Shown here: in pieces, positions 5,280-20,550 of the stretch
How the letters are laid out: every line of letters begins with the position of its first letter
Position numbering within the stretch: position 1 is the first letter of the stretch
Assembly (NCBI GenBank): GCA_017450485.1
Contig: JAFSTN010000044.1
Span: forward strand, 72,792 to 136,791
Direction: 5' to 3'
Length of the DNA: 64,000 nt
Source of the DNA: Lachnospiraceae bacterium
Lineage (GTDB): Bacteria > Bacillota > Clostridia > Lachnospirales > Lachnospiraceae
Notes under the pieces: model-generated
The model's input: only the letters and a program-made list of their open reading frames with translations
What the model was told of the DNA's origin: nothing
Databases searched by the model: none
Position numbers and translations under genes: made by a program

Positions 5280-5741
5280 TCACCCCTCTTTCTGCTTCTT
5301 GGCTTCGGCGAGCTTGTCATAGATAGGATATTTAACCTTATACTCGTCGCTGTCTATTATTATCTGGCAGCCCTTGCATGTAGCCGAATTGATGATGACG
5401 GGGCCTCTCAGATTGACGGTCATCTTCTCTATCTCGTGAGGAATGGTCATGGTCACCAGCACTACCATATCATCATCGTTCATCTCGCCCAGTGGCTTGA
5501 GAAGTTCATCATCGACCGAAGGGTTATAGTCATCCTTGACGATCAAGGGACTGATGACCGGCATAGCAAAACCGGGTTCTTCAACGGACTGCAGCCACTT
5601 GACCGTATTGCTGCCCTGATCCTCATCATACAGAAGTACGAAATGCTGTAAATCGGGGAAACCTATGATTCCGCCGGGGAAATTGATAACTTTGGACTCA
5701 TCAATCTCGATCTCGCCAAAAGCTCGTGTTAACATTTGCAT
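5280..5741 (-). CDS. fliW: Flagellar assembly factor FliW
   Basis: 153 aa. The N-terminus TRAFGEIEIDESKVINFPGGIIGFPDLQHFVLL is typical of FliW, and the fliW-csrA gene pair is conserved. Confidence 0.9.
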   Translation of the reverse strand: MQMLTRAFGEIEIDESKVINFPGGIIGFPDLQHFVLLYDEDQGSNTVKWLQSVEEPGFAMPVISPLIVKDDYNPSVDDELLKPLGEMNDDDMVVLVTMTIPHEIEKMTVNLRGPVIINSATCKGCQIIIDSDEYKVKYPIYDKLAEAKKQKEG

Positions 5742-5784
5742 AGCTGTACCCTCCCAAAAGATTTATATATAAAAATATACAATT

Positions 5785-7317
5785 TTAGATGTAATTTATC
5801 AAGCTGTTCTGCATGATCTTGCCCGTAGCCATAAGGGCTGCATCGTAGGTAGTCTCGGCTGCTGTCAGCAGTACGGCAACTTCCGTCATATCGATGCCTT
5901 CGTTCTCCTCCTGGAGCTCCTTGAATGTGGACTGCTGCTCCTCGAGTCTGGCTTCGATGAGCTCGAGACGGGTGGATCTGGTACCGTTCTTGGTAATGGC
6001 TACGTTTGTGCTGTCCAGATAACTCTGATATCTGGTGATCTGATCGCCGAAACGCTTGCTGACCGCATCGCGGATGTAGGTGTATGCCTTTTCGGCTGCA
6101 TCCAGTCTCTTCCTGCAATCCTTATATTCGGCCGTGCCCTCTACATAACCGTCGAGCTCTGCACCCAGATCCTTGCGTATATTCTCGATCTCGGTGAACT
6201 GGTTGACTATATCGCGGAGGTCATCCAGGTCTCTCGCAACAGCGGGGTCAAAGACCTCGTATGCGTTGGTGTTAACCTGGATTGTCTGATTGTAGCCGAC
6301 GTCATATACAATCTGGGTTGCCACGTTGCCGCCTTCGTTGTAGCGGATGCCGGTATCTTTATCCGTGCAGTCGAAGAAGTGCTGGGGATTTAAGTCATCC
6401 ACTTCCCACTGGTTCTTGTCATATGTAACGGAGATGCTGCCGCCGTCGGTGAAGACGGTGCTGAGTTTGTCGGCCAGATCGGAAGTAAAAAGCAATTCAC
6501 CTGTTGCAGGCACATAGCAGGCTGTCGGAGTAACAGGATCGGAACTCTCGGCAACCGTCATAGCCTTATATGCCTGCTCCGCTGAGGCATATTCGTTAAC
6601 AGTCACACCTGCCAGAGGAGAAGGGGTGATCGGATTTCCGGCTTTATCCTTGAATTCGAAAACGGGATCCACTCCGCTCAGCGTATTATTGTACGACAGC
6701 CTGATCCTGTGGATCTCTGCATTGGTAATATCCAGTTCATCGGCGTTTGCAGCCGAAGCCTTCGTGTCGAATACACTGTAATCGGTATAGCTGAAGCTGT
6801 CGAGCTGGGCTTCCTTCAGATTCTCAGTGATCGTATAATCCGGTGTCTTATTGGCTTTATCGATCTGTTCCTTCTGGAACGTCAGCGGAGTATCCGTCCT
6901 GTATCCGGTGAAAATATATCTGCCGGCATAGTCCTGATTACCGGTGGCATATACTTCATTGGTATATGAATCGATCTGGGAAAGGAGCACCTGCATGTCG
7001 GATGCGGTATAGTCCTTGTTAACGCCGGTCTCGACCTGATCATAGAGGGAAGTGTAGACCTTAGTGATGGTATCTAAGGACTTGGCAGTCACGTCCAGCC
7101 ACTGACTGGCATCGGGTGCGTTTTTCTTATAATACTGTGTCGCAGTGGAAACATTGGTTCTGAGTCTGAGTGCACGGATAGCTACCACGGGATCATCGGA
7201 GGGTCTCGTGATCTTGGACTGGCTGGTCAGCTGTGTATTGTATTTATCCTCTGCTATCTTGGTCTGATTGATGTTATACAGCGAATTGTGCTGCATGATC
7301 TTATTCGTCATTCTCAT
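5785..7317 (-). CDS. flgL: Flagellar hook-associated protein 3 (FlgL), long form
   Basis: Flagellin-type N-terminus (MRMTNKIMQHNSLYNINQ...RPSDDPVVAIRAL) and C-terminal helix (TYDAALMATGKIMQNSLINYI). Its position after flgK matches the canonical order. Confidence 0.85.
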   Translation of the reverse strand: MRMTNKIMQHNSLYNINQTKIAEDKYNTQLTSQSKITRPSDDPVVAIRALRLRTNVSTATQYYKKNAPDASQWLDVTAKSLDTITKVYTSLYDQVETGVNKDYTASDMQVLLSQIDSYTNEVYATGNQDYAGRYIFTGYRTDTPLTFQKEQIDKANKTPDYTITENLKEAQLDSFSYTDYSVFDTKASAANADELDITNAEIHRIRLSYNNTLSGVDPVFEFKDKAGNPITPSPLAGVTVNEYASAEQAYKAMTVAESSDPVTPTACYVPATGELLFTSDLADKLSTVFTDGGSISVTYDKNQWEVDDLNPQHFFDCTDKDTGIRYNEGGNVATQIVYDVGYNQTIQVNTNAYEVFDPAVARDLDDLRDIVNQFTEIENIRKDLGAELDGYVEGTAEYKDCRKRLDAAEKAYTYIRDAVSKRFGDQITRYQSYLDSTNVAITKNGTRSTRLELIEARLEEQQSTFKELQEENEGIDMTEVAVLLTAAETTYDAALMATGKIMQNSLINYI

Positions 7318-13593: not shown

Positions 13594-14983
13594 ACAGTAT
13601 CAGATAACCCTGCCTGTGCAGTTCTTCCGCGAAAGCCCGGTCAATGTCGGCTTTCCCTGCATCCTCTCCGGCTTTAGCGGCTTTGGTTGCCTTAGCCTCA
13701 CTGAGCAGTTCTGCAAGCTCCGGGCGGACCGTTACATGATCTATATCGGCCATATACACGTCCTGAGTACAGTCAAATCTGTTCAGCTCTCCCGCATAAT
13801 TTTTCGGTGTACCCGCATAGAGCCATTTTCCGGCTTTATCCGCGATGCATTCCGTCATCCGTCCGCGGCTGTCCAGAACACGTCCGATCACGGCGCCCAC
13901 ATCCGGACGAAGCGCGAAGAATGATTTATAGTCTCCAACACCCCAGTCGACATCATAGAAGCCACGATGCTTACTGTGCGAGACCCTGGGATAATCGCTG
14001 TCCGTGCTCATATTACGGCGGCAGAGTGTATTGACCATATCGGTCACTGCTTTTAATCCGGCTTCATAAGCGTATTCCTTACTGGATGTATTTGCGGCGG
14101 TACTGCCCCTGTGGCTCCTCCAGTGATACAGGACACGGGGTATATGAACGATATAATCGGACAGCTCATATGGCTGCAGGCCGTAATCACTGATCAGAGA
14201 TATGACCAGCTGCAAAACCAGATCATAATCCTGTGCTCCGTCATAAGCCGGTCTGAACTTGATAGTTTTAAGCATATCCTTGCGTACCAGCATTAAATGA
14301 CATATGTAATTATTGGTCATGAGCAGATCAAAGTTGAACTCATACTTCCTATGAGGATCGAAATATGATTTCACATGTCTGTCATCTTCCGAAAGCTTAT
14401 CCTCATCGGAATACAGCATCATCGGGTTATCCCGGCTGACTATCGTTTTCGCCATGTGATACAAGGCATCAGGGGGCAGCACATCATCATGATCCATGAA
14501 TCCTATATAATCGCATCCGCCTCCGGTTGTATCATCCAGAGCCATTTCCACTCCGGCATTGGTATTCCCGGATATGCCCATGTTGGATCCCAGCTCGACA
14601 TATCTGATTCGCGGTTCAGACGTGCATTTATCAGCCCATCTCCTGACGATATCATTATCACTGTCGGATGCATCAGCAATAACGAGTTTCCAATGGGGAT
14701 ATGACTGCCTGAGCACCGAGCCTAATGCCTCACGGAAAAAGTGCTCATCGGGATTATAAGCCGGCATAACTATAGTTATAGAAGGCCATCCTTCAGCATC
14801 AGCCGTTTCTTTACGCTGTTTTGCAAGTTCTCCGTCATCAGGCATCACATAGCTGTAATGGTTGTTCGCACGCGCTCCAAGCCGCTCCACAGCAGCAAAG
14901 AATGTATCACGAAACCCGTTACGCTTAAGATATTTCATGGTTTTTGCCAGATCGGACTGAAATCTCTTTTTCATACCTATCAT
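13577..14983 (-). CDS. Family 2 glycosyltransferase
   Basis: 468 aa with ITIVMPAYNPDEHFFREALGSVLRQSY, GISGNTNAG and FMDHDDVL (DxD), plus a C-terminal extension. Confidence 0.85.
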   Translation of the reverse strand: MIGMKKRFQSDLAKTMKYLKRNGFRDTFFAAVERLGARANNHYSYVMPDDGELAKQRKETADAEGWPSITIVMPAYNPDEHFFREALGSVLRQSYPHWKLVIADASDSDNDIVRRWADKCTSEPRIRYVELGSNMGISGNTNAGVEMALDDTTGGGCDYIGFMDHDDVLPPDALYHMAKTIVSRDNPMMLYSDEDKLSEDDRHVKSYFDPHRKYEFNFDLLMTNNYICHLMLVRKDMLKTIKFRPAYDGAQDYDLVLQLVISLISDYGLQPYELSDYIVHIPRVLYHWRSHRGSTAANTSSKEYAYEAGLKAVTDMVNTLCRRNMSTDSDYPRVSHSKHRGFYDVDWGVGDYKSFFALRPDVGAVIGRVLDSRGRMTECIADKAGKWLYAGTPKNYAGELNRFDCTQDVYMADIDHVTVRPELAELLSEAKATKAAKAGEDAGKADIDRAFAEELHRQGYLILYDPRA

Positions 14984-15043
14984 TATAGCAACAACCTGAC
15001 AGATGTATCAAATGATTGACACCCGTAAATATTCGGACCTTTT

Positions 15044-15117: not shown

Positions 15118-16353
15118 ATGAACCCTAAAATTGACAGAGCTTCTATCAAACTTCAGTCGAAGCAGCAGTTACAGGGCAAGATATGGATGACTTTCCTGTG
15201 CGTCCTGGTTGCTTCGCTCATAGGCGGAGCTATCGGAGGGATTCCGTCTAAGGTAATGCAGTATACCGACTCAGGTATCGTATGGTTTATTGCATGGGCT
15301 GTATATGTGGCTGCTCTCATCATGATCGCCATGCCCATAAATGTAGGTCTGACCAAGGTCTACCTGAACATCACTTACGGATACAAACCGAGCCTTGCTA
15401 CACTGTTTGAGCCTTTTGGCAAAAATTATAAGAACAGTGTCCTCACTCCTTTGCTTGTCAGCGTTTATGAGTTTCTGTGGTATATCCCGTTCTTCATCGT
15501 AAGCATCATCATTTCCGCGATAGCCTTTGCCGGAGCTATATATACCATCGGCGAAGATATCATGGACCTGTTTCTGTACGGCGACATGCCAAGCAGCGGA
15601 AGCATAGCAGGTGTTATAGGCGCGCTTTTCGGGATTTACCTGATCATTCTGCTCATGATGATCCCTTATATTATCATAGTCAACGCTTATGCCCAGTCGG
15701 TATATGTGTTATGCGAATATCCGGATATGACTCCCTCACAGTGCATCTCGGCCAGCAAGGCCATGATGAAGGGACGCAGATGGGAACTCTTTGTACTCAA
15801 CCTTTCATTTATCCTCTGGTATCTGCTGGTGGTTGTTACATTCGGTATCGCGATCATCTATGTCGGACCGTACGTATCGGTGACTCTGACCAACTATTAT
15901 CACCGGATAAAGGGTGGTTATACGGGCCCCGATGCGTATAATAACGGCAGTTATGGTCCTGATGGAGGCTATGGTCAGCCCCAATATGGACAGTCACAGT
16001 ACGGTCAGCCGATGCAGGGCCAGCAGTACGGTGCCACCACTCAGACCCAGGCTCCTTACGTTTACGGCGGACAGTCCGCGCAGAACCAGGCTCCTTACGG
16101 TTACGGTGGACAACCGGCTCAGAATCAGCAGTTCGGTACACCCTCTCAGCCTAAATACGATCCGAATACCGGCGAACCTCTTCAGCCGTCGGCACCCGGG
16201 TACGCACAAACCGCTGATCAGGTCGTAACCGGAGCCGAGCAGACCGCCGATCAGATCGTATCACAGGCCGAGCAGACAGTATCCGAGAGCCGGCAGGCAC
16301 TCGATCAGGCTTCGCACGATATGATGACAAACTTTGATGACTATACGAAATAA
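15118..16353 (+). CDS. DUF975-like integral membrane protein with Q/G/Y/P-rich C-terminal tail
   Basis: The N-terminal amphipathic start (RASIKLQSKQQLQGKIW) and about 6 TM segments resemble DUF975 proteins. The last ~140 aa are low-complexity and include a 13-aa tandem repeat, QAPY(V/G)YGGQ(S/P)AQN. Confidence 0.6.
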   Translation: MNPKIDRASIKLQSKQQLQGKIWMTFLCVLVASLIGGAIGGIPSKVMQYTDSGIVWFIAWAVYVAALIMIAMPINVGLTKVYLNITYGYKPSLATLFEPFGKNYKNSVLTPLLVSVYEFLWYIPFFIVSIIISAIAFAGAIYTIGEDIMDLFLYGDMPSSGSIAGVIGALFGIYLIILLMMIPYIIIVNAYAQSVYVLCEYPDMTPSQCISASKAMMKGRRWELFVLNLSFILWYLLVVVTFGIAIIYVGPYVSVTLTNYYHRIKGGYTGPDAYNNGSYGPDGGYGQPQYGQSQYGQPMQGQQYGATTQTQAPYVYGGQSAQNQAPYGYGGQPAQNQQFGTPSQPKYDPNTGEPLQPSAPGYAQTADQVVTGAEQTADQIVSQAEQTVSESRQALDQASHDMMTNFDDYTK

Positions 16354-16364
16354 AGACTGCATTG

Positions 16365-16393
16365 AAAAAGGCCCCCGGCGGGGGCCTTTTTTT
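16365..16393. terminator. Bidirectional intrinsic terminator
   Basis: AAAAA-GGCCCCC-GGC-GGGGGCC-TTTTTTT: a GC stem flanked by an A-tract and a T-tract, between convergent genes. The T-tract overlaps the phosphohexomutase stop codon. Confidence 0.85.
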
Positions 16394-18119
16394 AGATATT
16401 TGCTTTAACAGCCTCTGTCAATGCTTCCAGCTTTTTAGCCGCATCATCTGCGCTCGTTCCCTTGACTCCCATATAGAACTTGATCTTCGGCTCAGTACCC
16501 GAAGGCCTTGCACAACACCAGTTATTATCCGGCAGATCGAAGTAGAGTACGTTGGATGCAGGCAGGCCTGTTGGTGATTTTGCACCGGTCTCCATATCCA
16601 GAATATCTCCGGTCTTGTAATCTCTGAATTTCAGTACCTTCAGATCGCCGAAGCTCTTCGGAGGATCGTTTCTGAGCTTGTCCATGGTTGCCTGGATCTG
16701 CTTTGCTCCATCCGCGCCCTTCATGGTGATCGTGTACTGTGTCTCTTTGAAGTATCCGTATTTCTCATAGAGCTCGTTCATCATATCGCAGAGAGTCTTA
16801 CCGTTCTTCTTGCAGAAGGAAGCGACCTCACACAACATCATGACTGCTACGATAGCGTCCTTATCTCTCGCATGGGTACCGGCCAGACATCCGTATGACT
16901 CCTCAAGGCCGAATACATAGTTGTTATCCTTGTTACCGGCCTGCTCGAAGAGTTTTATCTGCTCTCCGATGTATTTGAAACCGGTCAGGACCTCGATCAG
17001 CTTGACGCCGTAGCTTGCTGTTATCGGGAAAGTCATGTTTGTGGTTACTATAGTCGTTACCATAGTAGGATTGGCGGGCATAGTGCCTGTGGCTTTTCTC
17101 TCACGCAGGATGTACTCTGCGATCAGCATACCCGACATATTTCCGGTAAAAGCCATATATTCGCCGGTCCCCGAATCCTTGGCATATACACCGAGACGAT
17201 CGGCATCAGGGTCGGTAGCAAGCACGATATCCGCATCTTTTTCCTTAGCCAGGTTCAGAGCATAGGTAAACGCTTTGGGATCCTCGGGGTTAGGATAATC
17301 AAGAGTGGTAAAATCGGGATCCGGGCCGGTCTGCTCGGGAACCACATATACATTCTCGAAGCCGAGTTCCTTAAGGATCCTCTGCGTAGGCTTGTTACCT
17401 GCTCCGCAAAGAGGCGTATATACGATCTTGAGATCTTTTGCAACAGCAGCGATCACATCGGGATGAATGATCTGCTTCTTGAGCTCTGCCATATATTTAT
17501 CGTCTATAGCCGAACCGATCTCCTCATAGAGGCCTGCCGATTTAGCTTCATCCACGGTCATTTTCCTGCAGTCGCTGTAGTTGACGATTGCCTGAACCTC
17601 TCCGATTATGCCTGTGTCGTGAGGAGGAGTGACCTGGGCACCGTCTTCCCAATATACCTTGTATCCGTTATATTCGGGGGGATTGTGGCTGGCGGTTACG
17701 TTGATACCGGCTGTGCAGCCCAGCTCTCTGACTGCGAAAGACAGCTCGGGAGTGGGTCTGAGCTCATCAAACACGTAAGCCTTGATGCCATTTGCTGCCA
17801 GACATGTAGCAGCAATATCGGCGAACTCACGTCCCATGCGGCGGCAGTCATAGGCGATGGCAACACCTTTGGACTGTGTCCCGGCCTTGATTATATAGTT
17901 TGCAAGGCCCTGTGTAGCCTTGTGTACGGTATATATGTTCATGCGGTTGGTACCGGCACCGATCACTCCGCGCAGTCCGCCGGTCCCGAACTCGAGCTCT
18001 TTGTAGAAACGATCCTCGATTTCTTTGTCATCACCCTCTATAGCCTTGAGTTCAGCCTTGGTCGCGTCATCGAACCAGGGATCCTCCAACCACTTACGAT
18101 ATTCGTCCTGATAGCTCAT
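16392..18119 (-). CDS. Phosphoglucomutase/phosphomannomutase-family phosphohexomutase (PgcA-like)
   Basis: 575 aa. The active-site loop TASHNPPEYNGYK, the metal loop ATDPDADR and the sugar loop GLEESYG are present. SD AAGGAGG lies upstream. Confidence 0.9.
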   Translation of the reverse strand: MSYQDEYRKWLEDPWFDDATKAELKAIEGDDKEIEDRFYKELEFGTGGLRGVIGAGTNRMNIYTVHKATQGLANYIIKAGTQSKGVAIAYDCRRMGREFADIAATCLAANGIKAYVFDELRPTPELSFAVRELGCTAGINVTASHNPPEYNGYKVYWEDGAQVTPPHDTGIIGEVQAIVNYSDCRKMTVDEAKSAGLYEEIGSAIDDKYMAELKKQIIHPDVIAAVAKDLKIVYTPLCGAGNKPTQRILKELGFENVYVVPEQTGPDPDFTTLDYPNPEDPKAFTYALNLAKEKDADIVLATDPDADRLGVYAKDSGTGEYMAFTGNMSGMLIAEYILRERKATGTMPANPTMVTTIVTTNMTFPITASYGVKLIEVLTGFKYIGEQIKLFEQAGNKDNNYVFGLEESYGCLAGTHARDKDAIVAVMMLCEVASFCKKNGKTLCDMMNELYEKYGYFKETQYTITMKGADGAKQIQATMDKLRNDPPKSFGDLKVLKFRDYKTGDILDMETGAKSPTGLPASNVLYFDLPDNNWCCARPSGTEPKIKFYMGVKGTSADDAAKKLEALTEAVKANI

Positions 18120-18167
18120 ATGTTTTCCTCCTTACTGATTAGTGTAATGAATGACATCACAACTTTA

Positions 18168-18178
18168 AGTATACCACA
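18168..18178 (-). promoter_or_regulatory. Extended -10 promoter element (TGTGgTATACT) for the phosphohexomutase gene
   Basis: The minus strand reads TTTTTTTGTGGTATACT, about 48 nt upstream of ATG 18119. The motif is identical to 15044-15054. Confidence 0.4.
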
Positions 18179-18208
18179 AAAAAAGTCCGATTACCTATTG
18201 CGGAACAA

Positions 18209-18237
18209 TTGATAACCGAACATATGTTTGATATAAT
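18209..18237 (+). promoter_or_regulatory. Near-consensus sigma-A promoter of the small-ORF transcript
   Basis: TTGATA-N17-TATAAT with an extended -10 (TGaTATAAT). The predicted +1 (7 nt downstream) is G 18244, exactly the first base of the long closing helix. Confidence 0.7.
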
Positions 18238-18243
18238 ATATGA

Positions 18244-18517
18244 GGTGCTACCTAAACGGTGGCGGTTAGTCCTCTGTCAGGGAGTACAAGCCCTGTTAAT
18301 ATAGAAACCCGTGAGGGAATAACTATAGGAGGAAATGTACTATGATCACCATGGAAAGCCTTATGGCGCTTATCGGGCTATGTATTACGATATTTGGTCT
18401 CGGCTATTCCATTGGAAGGAATAGCAAGCATTAAATAATCGCCACAGCCCGGAAAGCAGTTGGCGATTATTTAAAAACCACAATTTTCGGACTAACCGTT
18501 GCTGTACGGGTAGCACC
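18244..18517 (+). other. Structured ~274-nt transcript unit carrying the small toxin-like ORF (candidate type I toxin mRNA)
   Basis: The 5' arm 18244-18272 pairs with the 3' arm 18489-18517 over 29 positions: 22 Watson-Crick, 5 G-U and one 2x2 internal loop. Internal hairpins lie at 18279-18296 (CAGGG/CCCTG) and 18437-18468 (AATCGCCA/TGGCGATT). Confidence 0.5.
18342..18434 (+). CDS. 30-aa hydrophobic peptide, TxpA/BsrG/holin-like type I toxin candidate
   Basis: MITMESLMALIGLCITIFGLGYSIGRNSKH. SD AGGAGG (18327-18332) lies 9 nt upstream. The ESLMxxIG start resembles the Bacillus type I toxins TxpA/BsrG/BsrE (YESLMxMIxFG). It has one TM helix with a basic C-terminus. It is too short for the ORF track. 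Confidence 0.6.
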   Translation: MITMESLMALIGLCITIFGLGYSIGRNSKH

Positions 18518-18524
18518 TTTAATT
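18437..18524 (-). ncRNA. Predicted antisense (antitoxin-like) small RNA
   Basis: It would start about 7 nt downstream of the consensus minus-strand promoter at 18531-18559. It runs antisense across the 3' arm of the closing helix to the hairpin at 18468-18437, which is followed by AUUUAAUGCUU. The ends are not verifiable from sequence. Confidence 0.4.
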
Positions 18525-18530
18525 GATTCC

Positions 18531-18559
18531 ATTATAGATTTTGGTATATGCATTGTCAA
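18531..18559 (-). promoter_or_regulatory. Perfect-consensus sigma-A promoter facing the small ORF (antisense promoter)
   Basis: The minus strand reads TTGACA-ATGCATATACCAAAATC(17)-TATAAT. It begins 5 nt after the stop of the glycosyltransferase gene at 18565. Confidence 0.7.
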
Positions 18560-18564
18560 TATGA

Positions 18565-20550
18565 CTACTCCCACTTCGCCGGCACAATGCAGTAATCGCT
18601 GCGATCCAGGCTGAAGTTCGGGTTGTAGTACGGATCGCCGGCGGCAAGCTCAGCGACCCATTTCTCACGGAAGCGTTCGGATTCCTCGTTGTAACGCTCG
18701 GCAGAAGCTCCGGTCATATCCGATCCGCGGGATACCGATTCATAGTGATACAGTTCCGCAAAAGGCGTAAACACATTGAGATAGCCTTTTCCACGGCATT
18801 TGAGGCAGAAATCGACGTCGTTTAGTGACACGCGGAAGCTCTCGTCCAGCCCGCCTACTTCATCATAAATTGCGCGCAATACCATCAGGCACGCACCTGT
18901 CACGGCTGTCACGTCCTGAGCGTAGCACAGACGTCCCATATATCCGAGGTTCGTCACCGGCATCATATAATGCGTATGTCCGGCGGTTCTGTGTGCTCCC
19001 AATCCGATCACGACGCCGGCGTGCTGGATCGTCATGTCGGGATAGTACAATTTGGCACCCGCACACGCCACATCCGCGCGCTGGGCATACATCAGCAGCT
19101 CTTCGATCCAGTCGAGCGTGATGACCTCCGTATCATTATTCAGCAATAGAATGTACTCTCCGGTCGACTCCCTGACCCCCATATTGCAGACAGCAGAATA
19201 ATTGAACTCTCCCTCCCATGTAACCACACGGATATTGGGGTGAGTCTTCAATTCCTCGTAATATTCGAAGATCTCGTCAGTTACGGAATTATTCTCCACG
19301 ATCACGATCTCGTAGTTGTCATATGTGCTTTTCTCAAGGATCGACGAAATGCAGCGTTTCAGGTCCTCGATATGGTCCTTGTTGGGAATGACGATCGATA
19401 CCTTCGGATCGCCCTGGATCTCATATCTGATACGGAAAATGGTCTCAAAAGCCCGAGTCGATGTGATCTCGAAATTCTCATAACCGAGCGTACGCAGGTG
19501 ATCGGCCACCGCTCCCTTGGCGGCATCGATCGCATAACTCTTGGCATTTATGTTTTTCGCCACGGAAGCCTTATGCGAGCGCCAGTAGTACATCAGCTTC
19601 GGCACATGCACCACATGCTTCGCCCGGGCGGTCAGCCGCAATATCATATCATGGTCCTGACTGCCGTCAAACTCCGTGCGGAAAAGTTCCATACCCTCGA
19701 GCAGATCCCTGGAAAAAGCGCTGAAGTGACAGATATAGTTATTCGCCAGCAGGTTATCGGGTGCAAAATCGGGCTTAAAGTGAAGCGTGATCATATTATC
19801 CACGCTGTTACCCTTAAAAGTCGTCTCGTCGCAATAAATATAATCGGCATCCTGCTCGCAGATCACCTTCATATACTCATACAGCACCGAAGGATGCAGA
19901 ATATCATCATGGTCGAATAGAGCGATGAAGTTGCCCGTTGCCATTCGGTAACACTCGTTCGTATTGCCTGATATTCCTTCATTCGATTCCAGCTTCTTAT
20001 ATAAGATACGTTTATCTTCCGCAGCATATTGCCCACACAGCTCACCTACATAGGCGTGTTCGGCATCCGAACCATCCGCCAGGCAGAGTTCCCAGCCGGC
20101 GTAGGTCTGTGACCTCACGGACTCTATCATATCGATCAGGAACTTTTTCGGCGTATTATACAGAGGCACGAGTATGGAAAAGACTATATCGCGGTCAAAC
20201 CGGGTCTCCTCTTCCTTTTTGCGGCGCGCAGCATCGGGAAACGACTTCGTGCCATGGCTGGAGCGGGCTGCTCTCTCCTGCATTTTGGAGTCGACTTTGC
20301 GCAGGATCCCGCGGATGGAGCCGTATGCACCCAGTCTTTGCTTAGTACGCTGCAAAAAGTGGATAACATCTCTCGCCGGTTTGCTGGCCTTCCAAAGTCC
20401 CGATCCTTTGATACGCTCCAGCCTGTCAGCAGTGGCATTCATCTCATTCCGTGCCGCCGCGATCTTGGCCTGCAGAGCTTCGGTACGTTCTTTCTCGGAC
20501 TTGTATTCATTTATATAGTAGTTTTGGTCTTCCATATTCACTGTTACCAT
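18565..20550 (-). CDS. Dual-domain family 2 glycosyltransferase with N-terminal coiled coil
   Basis: 661 aa. About 100 aa of coiled coil contain GSGLWKASKPAR. Two GT2 modules follow: FSILVPLYNT...FDHDD, and VSIVIPNKDH...VENNS...LLNNDTEV. Confidence 0.85.
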   Translation of the reverse strand: MVTVNMEDQNYYINEYKSEKERTEALQAKIAAARNEMNATADRLERIKGSGLWKASKPARDVIHFLQRTKQRLGAYGSIRGILRKVDSKMQERAARSSHGTKSFPDAARRKKEEETRFDRDIVFSILVPLYNTPKKFLIDMIESVRSQTYAGWELCLADGSDAEHAYVGELCGQYAAEDKRILYKKLESNEGISGNTNECYRMATGNFIALFDHDDILHPSVLYEYMKVICEQDADYIYCDETTFKGNSVDNMITLHFKPDFAPDNLLANNYICHFSAFSRDLLEGMELFRTEFDGSQDHDMILRLTARAKHVVHVPKLMYYWRSHKASVAKNINAKSYAIDAAKGAVADHLRTLGYENFEITSTRAFETIFRIRYEIQGDPKVSIVIPNKDHIEDLKRCISSILEKSTYDNYEIVIVENNSVTDEIFEYYEELKTHPNIRVVTWEGEFNYSAVCNMGVRESTGEYILLLNNDTEVITLDWIEELLMYAQRADVACAGAKLYYPDMTIQHAGVVIGLGAHRTAGHTHYMMPVTNLGYMGRLCYAQDVTAVTGACLMVLRAIYDEVGGLDESFRVSLNDVDFCLKCRGKGYLNVFTPFAELYHYESVSRGSDMTGASAERYNEESERFREKWVAELAAGDPYYNPNFSLDRSDYCIVPAKWE

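Follow-up and report, generated by a model that had tools for sequence, protein, structure and literature searches.

The 64,000-nucleotide stretch of Lachnospiraceae bacterium DNA analysed here (contig JAFSTN010000044.1 of assembly GCA_017450485.1, positions 72,792–136,791; hereafter the window) carries at positions 18209–18559 a small cassette that, judged by comparison with its relatives, is probably a type I toxin-antitoxin module of the chromosome, akin to BsrG/TxpA (Pfam Hol_Tox). The self-contained cassette of about 300–350 bp combines two convergent promoters, a Shine-Dalgarno sequence (SD), an open reading frame (ORF) of 30 amino acids, a hairpin over the stop codon and an inverted repeat. 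The module belongs to a kind of system already known, of which it forms a branch without annotation, and would work like bsrG/SR4 as far as in silico tests tell. An earlier sequence-only reading had proposed a BsrG/TxpA-like type I module at this site, a proposal that is now supported by the related modules rather than by the peptide alone: convergent promoters, a predicted 3′-overlapping antisense RNA and a transmembrane peptide with a basic tail are conserved as a unit in many genomes. That reading had missed a LexA box, the inverted repeat that gives a helix between the 5′ and 3′ ends of the toxin RNA, and the location of the stop codon inside a shared hairpin.

Both promoters lie where they had first been placed. 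The plus-strand TTGATA-N17-TGaTATAAT matches at 11 of 12 positions, contains the TG of an extended −10 element and sets the predicted start of the toxin transcript at 18243/18244. The minus-strand TTGACA-N17-TATAAT promoter at 18531–18559 is perfect (12 of 12), and AGGAGG (18327–18332) precedes the 30-residue ORF (18342–18434) by 9 nt, as described earlier. A lenient promoter scan returned six promoter-like sites against an expectation of 3.1 ± 2.0, a count that is not significant on its own; the toxin and antitoxin promoters are the only 11/12 and 12/12 matches among the six. The strongest argument against chance is comparative and comes from a repeated motif and the related modules that it retrieves (below). 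A promoter is found at the position of the window's toxin promoter in most of 35 related modules, the antitoxin TTGACA-17-TATAAT/TATATT recurs in most modules and is usually nearer the consensus than the toxin promoter, and an SD 5–11 nt before the start codon is kept in the related modules.

A 29-nt motif, GGTGCTACC-N11-GGTTAGTCC, follows both promoters and occurs exactly twice in the window, where 0.02 occurrences are expected. A scan of a genome collection with this repeat motif as the query returned 24 loci, 23 of which belong to Butyrivibrio or other Lachnospiraceae, mostly from the rumen; the remaining match, in Chitinophaga, was judged to be due to chance. The entire unit is present in the 23 loci, with both promoters, the 5′ domain, the SD, a hydrophobic ORF of 26–37 codons, the hairpin over the stop codon and the mirrored domain. 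A relaxed version of the motif scan identified the cassette in 53 viral contigs, and a tblastn search against phages yielded one faecal phage record with a 50%-identical peptide and a matching layout; the other phage matches of that search, from Burkholderia phages, were noise. The set assembled in all comprised 36 non-redundant modules. Homology between the window and most loci is limited to about 18218–18537, with sharp boundaries, and the flanks are syntenic in one locus only (L006, 84% identity across the phosphoglucomutase and glycosyltransferase genes). The neighbours at other loci include genes for a Mob_Pre relaxase, an Abi_2 protein, a phage integrase and a Cro/C1 regulator, and also housekeeping genes.

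The cassette is thus kept as a unit amid unrelated flanking genes, which assigns the minus-strand promoter to the cassette. In the window this promoter faces the phosphohexomutase gene (16392–18119, minus strand), which lies about 400 bp downstream, and the sequence-only reading had raised the case that the promoter merely produces a long leader for that gene. Such a distal promoter or leader, with a small ORF arising by chance, is scarcely credible and is excluded by the cassette's spread: the promoter accompanies the cassette into loci without a phosphohexomutase gene, a conserved hairpin and U-rich tail follow about 95 nt after it, and the ORF is conserved with a coding signature. The variety of genomic contexts, the sharp homology boundaries and the frequent proximity to mobile-element genes would also suit inverted repeats that bound a miniature mobile element or form a DNA palindrome recognised by a protein, with the ORF and promoters incidental. 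This explanation is very improbable, as the conserved promoters lie outside the repeats, no transposase is associated with them, and the block spacing within the repeats ranges from 3 to 11 nt, which fits RNA hairpin loops and not a protein site. A strand-specific asymmetry of G·U pairs, described below, further argues for selection at the RNA level, and the ORF has a coding signature.

Table 1. Features of the cassette, in window coordinates
Feature	Position	Strand	Details
Toxin promoter	18209–18237	+	−35 TTGATA 18209–18214, 17-nt spacer, extended −10 TGaTATAAT 18229–18237
Predicted LexA operator	18217–18230		CGAACATATGTTTG; in toxin promoter spacer, overlaps extended −10
Toxin RNA 5′ domain	18243–18272	+	5′ arm of helix P1; local hairpin H1 18247–18263; invariant CGGUUAG
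Inverted repeat I1	18243–18272 and 18489–18518		30 nt, directly after each promoter
Anti-SD UCCUCU	18270–18275	+	pairs with GGAGGA 18328–18333; first three bases form the last pairs of P1
Hairpins of the 5′ untranslated region	H2 18278–18295; H3 18300–18327	+	inner stem of H3 CCC/GGG; from covariance-model alignment
Shine-Dalgarno sequence	18327–18333	+	AGGAGGA; AGGAGG 18327–18332, 9 nt 5′ of ATG 18342
Toxin ORF	18342–18434	+	30 amino acids, MITMESLMALIGLCITIFGLGYSIGRNSKH; one hydrophobic helix, basic tail
Hairpin T1 (inverted repeat I2)	18431–18474		perfect 14-bp stem, 16-nt loop; begins inside toxin stop codon
P1 3′ arm	18489–18519	+	in toxin RNA; U-run 18519–18528 after it
Antitoxin RNA (predicted)	18426–18524	−	about 95–100 nt: 5′ hairpin 18517–18489, spacer, T1, U-rich tail UUAUUUAAU
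Antitoxin promoter	18531–18559	−	TTGACA 18559–18554, 17-nt spacer, TATAAT 18536–18531; 12/12 matches

The small ORF bears the marks of a coding sequence. Among 13 distinct Butyrivibrio alleles, the variable sites at codon positions 1, 2 and 3 number 11, 5 and 19, and the C-terminal 13 codons contain 162 synonymous versus 58 non-synonymous pairwise differences. The exact window peptide occurs in public gene calls without a name, and its relatives are called only 'hypothetical'. An overlapping ORF in the +2 frame (18335–18424, 29 residues) was dropped; its ATG lies 2 nt after the SD and is missing in most relatives. The 3′ part of the toxin ORF also contains an 8-bp hairpin (18403–18410/18418–18425, GCUAUUCC/GGAAUAGC) that is present in all Butyrivibrio alleles, with only synonymous changes in its loop.

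Membership of the window peptide in the BsrG/TxpA toxin family is probable from sequence comparison and holds only indirectly, because sister peptides and not the window peptide itself reach the Hol_Tox model. In modules with the same RNA scaffold, the sister peptide of L031 scores 26.4 bits and passes the 23.3-bit cut-off of Hol_Tox, that of L049 scores 21.3 bits, and 4 of the 12 peptides of the L031 group match at E ≤ 1; BsrG, whose sequence was verified at 100% identity in SPbeta, and TxpA score 34.5 and 31.3 bits. An hhalign comparison aligned the window group with the Hol_Tox-like group over 24 columns in register from Met1 (E = 2.2e-4). The family peptides form a continuum from xLGYSIG-type tails to MVTY...KKK types, with intermediates such as MVTFDSLFNFSLVLIAIAGGSYSLGFTMGKLSSKRK. 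The TxpA family had earlier been expanded to 118 members, Clostridiales included (Fozo et al., PMC2887945), and TxpA-like genes in Clostridiales have been noted before (PMC2887945; PMC6563280). Several results count against the assignment. The window peptide gives no match to Hol_Tox (PF16935) at E ≤ 10, below the 23.3-bit gathering cut-off, no other Pfam model and no NCBIfam model matches it, a BLASTP search against BsrG produces no alignment, and the probability of the profile–profile alignment is just 45%. The family assignment made in the sequence-only reading is thus supported by way of sister peptides; the window peptide itself fails Hol_Tox (the check that reading had proposed), NCBIfam and BLASTP against BsrG.

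The decayed copies of the cassette bear on the nature of the peptide. Three independent deletions (L014, L017 and L023) removed the toxin promoter, the 5′ untranslated region (5′UTR) or the N-terminus while the antitoxin gene was kept, and a replacement in L008 took away the 5′ portion of the toxin gene but spared the antitoxin promoter and RNA. The reverse decay, an intact toxin without an antitoxin, was not found among the copies compared. This asymmetry is taken as indirect evidence of a harmful peptide, whose effect is assumed to be membrane or envelope damage that leads to growth arrest or lysis. A small membrane protein that is harmless though under antisense control, for instance one induced by stress to modulate a transporter or the synthesis of the envelope, with an antisense RNA that does no more than adjust its level, is unlikely. 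It would suit a window peptide that matches no toxin model and a chromosomal, syntenic site among envelope-glycan genes, where a housekeeping accessory role could be expected, and some predicted type I toxins, YhzE-2 among them, were not toxic when tested (PMC2887945). Opposed to it are the sister modules that encode bona fide Hol_Tox peptides, the loss of the toxin with retention of the antitoxin in four copies and never the reverse, the copies that adjoin Mob_Pre, Abi_2, integrase and Cro/C1 genes or occur in phages, and the two layers of SD occlusion, which are typical of a product that needs to stay off.

The first of these layers resides in the toxin 5′UTR, for which a covariance model was built from nine Butyrivibrio UTRs with hairpin H1, the anti-SD:SD helix and hairpins H2 and H3. 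The model identified 42 instances. In the resulting alignment, 95% of cells are paired versus about 50% with the partners slid, and compensatory changes are observed in 18 of 24 pairs; none of 500 shuffles reached the observed values. The anti-SD:SD helix (helix 3) is 97% paired with compensatory changes in four of its six pairs, and such changes occur in 5/5 pairs of H2 and 3/3 pairs of the H3 inner stem (40 distinct sequences). The alignment was fitted to the structure that it tests, which somewhat inflates the pairing figures and weakens the case to that extent. Alignment of 18 diverse 5′UTRs with MAFFT and RNAalifold was poor and recovered the local 5′ hairpin alone, and the covariance model was used instead. 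By this comparative measure, the toxin 5′UTR is a conserved structured RNA that would hide the SD.

The antitoxin 5′ domain was considered as a further partner of the SD. In L015, L036, L054, L066 and L074, its UUAGCCC(CCU) sequence is complementary to the toxin SD region over 7–10 bp, suggesting an extra anti-SD contact in trans in these subfamilies. The contact is missing from the window subfamily (z ≥ 0), the mean z over the subfamilies compared was only −0.65, and such a role was not adopted for the window locus; an unconstrained duplex search of the antitoxin 5′ part against the toxin was noisy and gave no conserved site.

The two ends of the toxin RNA are predicted to pair with each other in a long helix, P1. 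In the fold of 18243–18530 (−111 kcal/mol, z = −7.0), 28 bp form between the 5′ end and 18489–18519, and the minimum-free-energy folds of 19 of 22 diverse modules contain a P1 of 23–29 bp. The copies of the repeat differ chiefly by transitions that give G·U pairs in the sense RNA and A·C mismatches on the other strand. The sense duplex is the more stable one in all 33 non-redundant modules (−44.7 versus −34.4 kcal/mol), with 131 versus 17 G·U pairs. The first, diverged module of a tandem pair in L045 has two compensatory changes in P1, and in the module folds a toxin-specific insert pairs with the complement of the antitoxin loop. P1 also explains the mirror symmetry of the cassette: the antitoxin gene lies opposite the P1 3′ arm, so the antitoxin RNA must begin with almost the same sequence as the toxin RNA.

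Downstream of the ORF, T1 folds with A- and U-rich flanks on both sides, in the form of a bidirectional terminator. The antitoxin RNA is predicted to terminate at T1, which may also stop part of the toxin transcripts. A simple terminator scan found nothing, and missed T1 because its loop is 16 nt long. The stem core of T1 occurs in compensatory variants, TAACCG/CGGTTA in 22 modules, TAATCG/CGATTA in five and TAGCCG/CGGCTA in two. The predicted antitoxin RNA (fold −31.8 kcal/mol, z = −3.4) is complementary to the toxin RNA throughout, from the stop codon to the P1 3′ arm (18489–18519 and 18431–18474), and its layout in the window recurs in all related modules. The toxin RNA probably reads through T1 to about 18525 and measures about 285 nt, slightly above the 230–280 nt that had been estimated; a predicted sense RNA of this order is retained and its length is revised.

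Several points weigh against P1. Its arms are mostly invariant and classical covariation is sparse; cognate arms pair only about 4 kcal/mol better than non-cognate ones (−44.8 versus −40.8) and are the best partners in 2 of 32 modules; and the modules share descent, so that the 33/33 result and the Wilcoxon p-values overstate independence. The form of T1 is that of a true bidirectional terminator, and much of the toxin RNA may stop at about 18480 without the P1 3′ arm. The U-run after P1 (UUUAAUUGAUU) is weak in the window, where no independent hairpin follows P1 as a separate toxin terminator stem-loop and the U-run at 18519–18528 stands by itself. These points bear on an alternative type I module in which the toxin RNA ends at T1, P1 never forms and repression operates through the approximately 50-nt overlap at T1 alone, the mirrored 5′ domains being a shared 5′-terminal stabiliser hairpin or protein-binding element. 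The A- and U-rich flanks of T1, a toxin 5′ domain that can fold locally like the antitoxin hairpin in the RNAalifold consensus, and a 5′UTR fold with the anti-SD:SD helix that is supported without P1 are all compatible with it. This alternative is nonetheless unlikely. It leaves unexplained the transitions between the repeat copies that yield G·U pairs only in the sense RNA (33 of 33 modules), the pairing of the toxin insert with the complement of the antitoxin loop and the compensatory changes in L045, and the probed bsrG mRNA has exactly such a P1. A full-length toxin RNA closed by P1 is the preferred structure.

Around T1, further sequence sharing is observed. The T1 core UAA(C/U)CG...CG(G/A)UUA is almost invariant although the peptides and UTRs of the family have diverged, and its CGGUUA hexamer is also present in the 5′ domains of both RNAs (18264–18269, and 18492–18497 on the minus strand). 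A window repeat, I9, relates 18259–18268 to 18436–18445, so that the 5′ domain of either RNA could compete with the 3′ half of T1. The shared hexamer may constitute a built-in antiterminator, that is, an antitermination choice.

The proposed mechanism is modelled on bsrG/SR4. In the probed bsrG mRNA, helix P1 joins nt 1–35 to nt 232–262, and the 5′ strand of the stem-loop SL3 includes the stop codon; the L4 loop of SR4 contacts the L3 loop of bsrG and SR4 then pairs with the P1 3′ arm (PMC3834814). Upon SR4 binding, bsrG nt 1–33 become single-stranded, the SD helix extends from 4 to 8 bp, and RNase III degrades the duplex (PMC3834814). In the window module, a sigma-A-type promoter would produce the mRNA for the 30-residue membrane peptide, and an upstream UCCUCU in the structured 5′UTR would sequester the SD. 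The stronger convergent promoter would produce the antisense RNA of about 95 nt that ends at the hairpin over the toxin stop codon. In P1, the first 30 nt of the toxin RNA would pair with a stretch beyond T1 that is exactly complementary to the 5′ end of the antitoxin. As long as the full-length toxin RNA is free, P1 would keep the anti-SD off the SD and leave the SD partly exposed. By analogy with bsrG/SR4, the antitoxin would first contact the toxin RNA through complementary hairpin loops and zip through the P1 3′ arm, setting the toxin 5′ arm free. The freed arm would refold into H1 and the anti-SD:SD helix and block translation, and the toxin–antitoxin duplex of about 97 bp would become a substrate of RNase III.

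Thermodynamic modelling, in which antitoxin binding was represented by forbidding pairing of the complementary 3′ region, is consistent with this switch. When the 3′ region of the window module was blocked, the unpaired probability of the SD decreased from 0.55 to 0.14 and the probability of the SD:anti-SD pairing, P(SD:anti-SD), increased from 0.00 to 0.62. The corresponding means over 35 modules changed from 0.28 to 0.11 and from 0.09 to 0.53 (p about 1e-7). P1 and the anti-SD overlap by three bases (UCC), which would physically couple the state of P1 to that of the SD. The family gives a sequence-based rationale for how an antitoxin that binds at the 3′ end could shut a distant ribosome-binding site, as shown experimentally for bsrG/SR4, and it offers many natural variants for testing a mechanism of the bsrG/SR4 type.

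The spacer of the toxin promoter contains a predicted operator for LexA of the SOS response. The operator CGAACATATGTTTG is the sole match to CGAAC-N4-GTTYG in the 64-kb window and fits the clostridial LexA motif, GAAC-N4-GTTT/C (PMC4234289); the lexA and recA promoters of the host lie outside the window. LexA bound between the −35 and −10 elements is predicted to exclude RNA polymerase. A 9/10 match is located at the same promoter offset in L006, L018, L012 (Butyrivibrio sp. AE3009) and the phage L025, and no LexA box is found in the antitoxin promoters of the compared modules. A pattern scan of metagenomes yielded, after filtering, at least 16 further distinct modules with the box between −35 and −10. 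These modules, mostly from the human gut, encode peptides of the same subfamily as the window, and their half-sites are fixed while the central four bases vary. About 80% of the loci from the metagenome scan were chance matches from soil and water samples and were filtered out.

Two points weigh on the other side. The metagenome scan required CGAAC...GTT by design. Most Butyrivibrio copies have a different promoter that lacks the box, those of B. proteoclasticus P18 and Butyrivibrio sp. YAB3001 among them, so SOS control is not family-wide. If the box is functional, LexA would repress the toxin promoter and DNA damage would shift the balance to the toxin, much as with E. coli tisB. We propose only tentatively that the subfamily with xLGYxxG peptide ends, which is found in rumen and human-gut Lachnospiraceae and their phages, represents a LexA-controlled BsrG/TxpA-type toxin whose antitoxin displaces the mRNA 5′ end from the fold-back helix. 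The literature searched reports LexA-controlled type I toxins from E. coli only. If the proposal is true, the subfamily would give Firmicutes their first type I toxin-antitoxin system under SOS control and would be the Gram-positive analogue of TisB. Damage to DNA or induction of a prophage would then lead strict anaerobes into dormancy or lysis by way of a membrane peptide. A functional LexA box would extend SOS-triggered membrane toxins beyond enterobacteria, which would matter for the antibiotic tolerance of gut anaerobes and for the biology of their prophages.

The window copy is chromosomal and sits between the phosphoglucomutase gene and the glycosyltransferase genes, with flagellar genes, mscL and a DUF975 gene as further neighbours. 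The DUF975 membrane protein (15118–16353) has a long C-terminal tail of low complexity that is rich in Q, G, Y and P. Rfam 15 covariance models gave nothing better than E = 8.5 in 18100–18620 and no family attained its gathering score anywhere in the window, whether tRNA, riboswitch or another curated RNA, and the modules of 12 related loci likewise contained none at the gathering score. In L018, a MAG, the module (5–342) adjoins a homologue of window 14006–15027 (354–1375) and not the glycosyltransferase gene, a pattern that points either to rearrangement or to a separate insertion event when compared with the window and L006. One large viral contig, L045, contains two modules in tandem (5695–6045 and 6120–6470), the first of which encodes MITISLQTIYYALGIASILCTSAYKIGYEIGKNARK. 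A type II hammerhead ribozyme (1998–2064; 44.6 bits, gathering score 37) is found on the module-bearing viral contig L054. tRNA genes are located near modules on the phage contigs L034 (176–259 and 3645–3882) and L045 (3935–4981) and at the integrase-bearing locus L021 (5396–5467).

Apart from C. difficile, Clostridia have been regarded as poor in type I systems (PMC6563280); the cassette defines a large and unannotated family there. In public gene calls, one sister peptide is present on 348 contigs and another cluster has 77 members, all of them labelled 'hypothetical'. The carriers are rumen and human-gut Lachnospiraceae and their phages, and current protein and RNA models overlook the family; the covariance model and peptide alignments obtained here could serve as a seed for an Rfam or Pfam entry.

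Among known systems, par of the E. faecalis plasmid pAD1 (fst RNA I/RNA II) consists of convergent genes with one bidirectional terminator and a short antitoxin, and its loops are thought to make the first contact. The window module has in common with it the convergent genes, a predicted bidirectional terminator used by both and the short antitoxin. Direct repeats make the 5′ ends of the par RNAs complementary, whereas the inverted repeats of the window module make both 5′ ends alike, and the par toxin belongs to the Fst/Ldr family. In the full-length toxin mRNAs of hok/sok (plasmid R1) and aapA1/IsoA1 (Helicobacter pylori), the 5′ and 3′ ends pair in a fold-back helix that governs translatability and access of the antitoxin. 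The hok and aapA1 antitoxins target the 5′ translation-initiation region after 3′ trimming, in contrast to the window antitoxin, whose complement is the 3′ arm of the fold-back helix itself. T1TAdb counts such long-distance interactions among its structural descriptors (PMC8594479).

The regulatory layout resembles that of tisB/IstR-1, dinQ/AgrB and symE/SymR of E. coli, in which the toxin promoter has a LexA operator and the antitoxin promoter is constitutive (PMC5848175), a combination that is predicted here. Their toxin mRNAs are likewise structured and translationally inert. Their toxins are unrelated to the window peptide, and their operator is of the Gram-negative CTGT-N8-ACAG type. The tisB and dinQ antitoxins, whose genes lie upstream, target the 5′ region in trans, and the symE antitoxin overlaps the 5′ end. 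The txpA/RatA pair from the skin element of B. subtilis, together with the related E. faecalis EF3263 and S. aureus sprG/SprF, probably share the toxin family with the window module, have a convergent 3′-overlapping antisense RNA as it does and often reside on prophage-like elements. They differ in the size of TxpA (59 residues) and RatA (about 220 nt), in a described mechanism of RNase III-dependent degradation and in that no SOS operator has been reported for them; the window copy is located in the chromosomal backbone.

The closest comparison is with bsrG/SR4 of the B. subtilis prophage SPbeta, whose toxin belongs to Hol_Tox. Both systems have a small hydrophobic toxin with a basic tail, a convergent 3′-overlapping antisense RNA, a P1 helix, an SD in a short helix and a stop codon within the 5′ side of a stem-loop whose antisense strand forms the antitoxin terminator. 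In silico, all of these structural points recur in the window module, where T1 corresponds to SL3. The RNAs share no sequence similarity with those of bsrG/SR4; the loop of the bsrG terminator (L080, SPbeta, about 612–620) holds the 9-mer GGTGCTACC in another position and orientation, probably by chance. The window peptide has 30 residues versus 38, ends in GLGYSIGRNSKH and not in a lysine run, and fails Hol_Tox, and the window antitoxin, about 95 nt long compared with some 180 nt for SR4, begins exactly where P1 ends. A U-run takes the place of the separate toxin terminator stem-loop after P1, and the module bears a LexA box whereas bsrG responds to temperature. What sets the window module apart is a minimal antitoxin, the hairpin that both RNAs share at the stop codon, an operator predicted for LexA and a broad distribution among Lachnospiraceae of gut and rumen and their phages.

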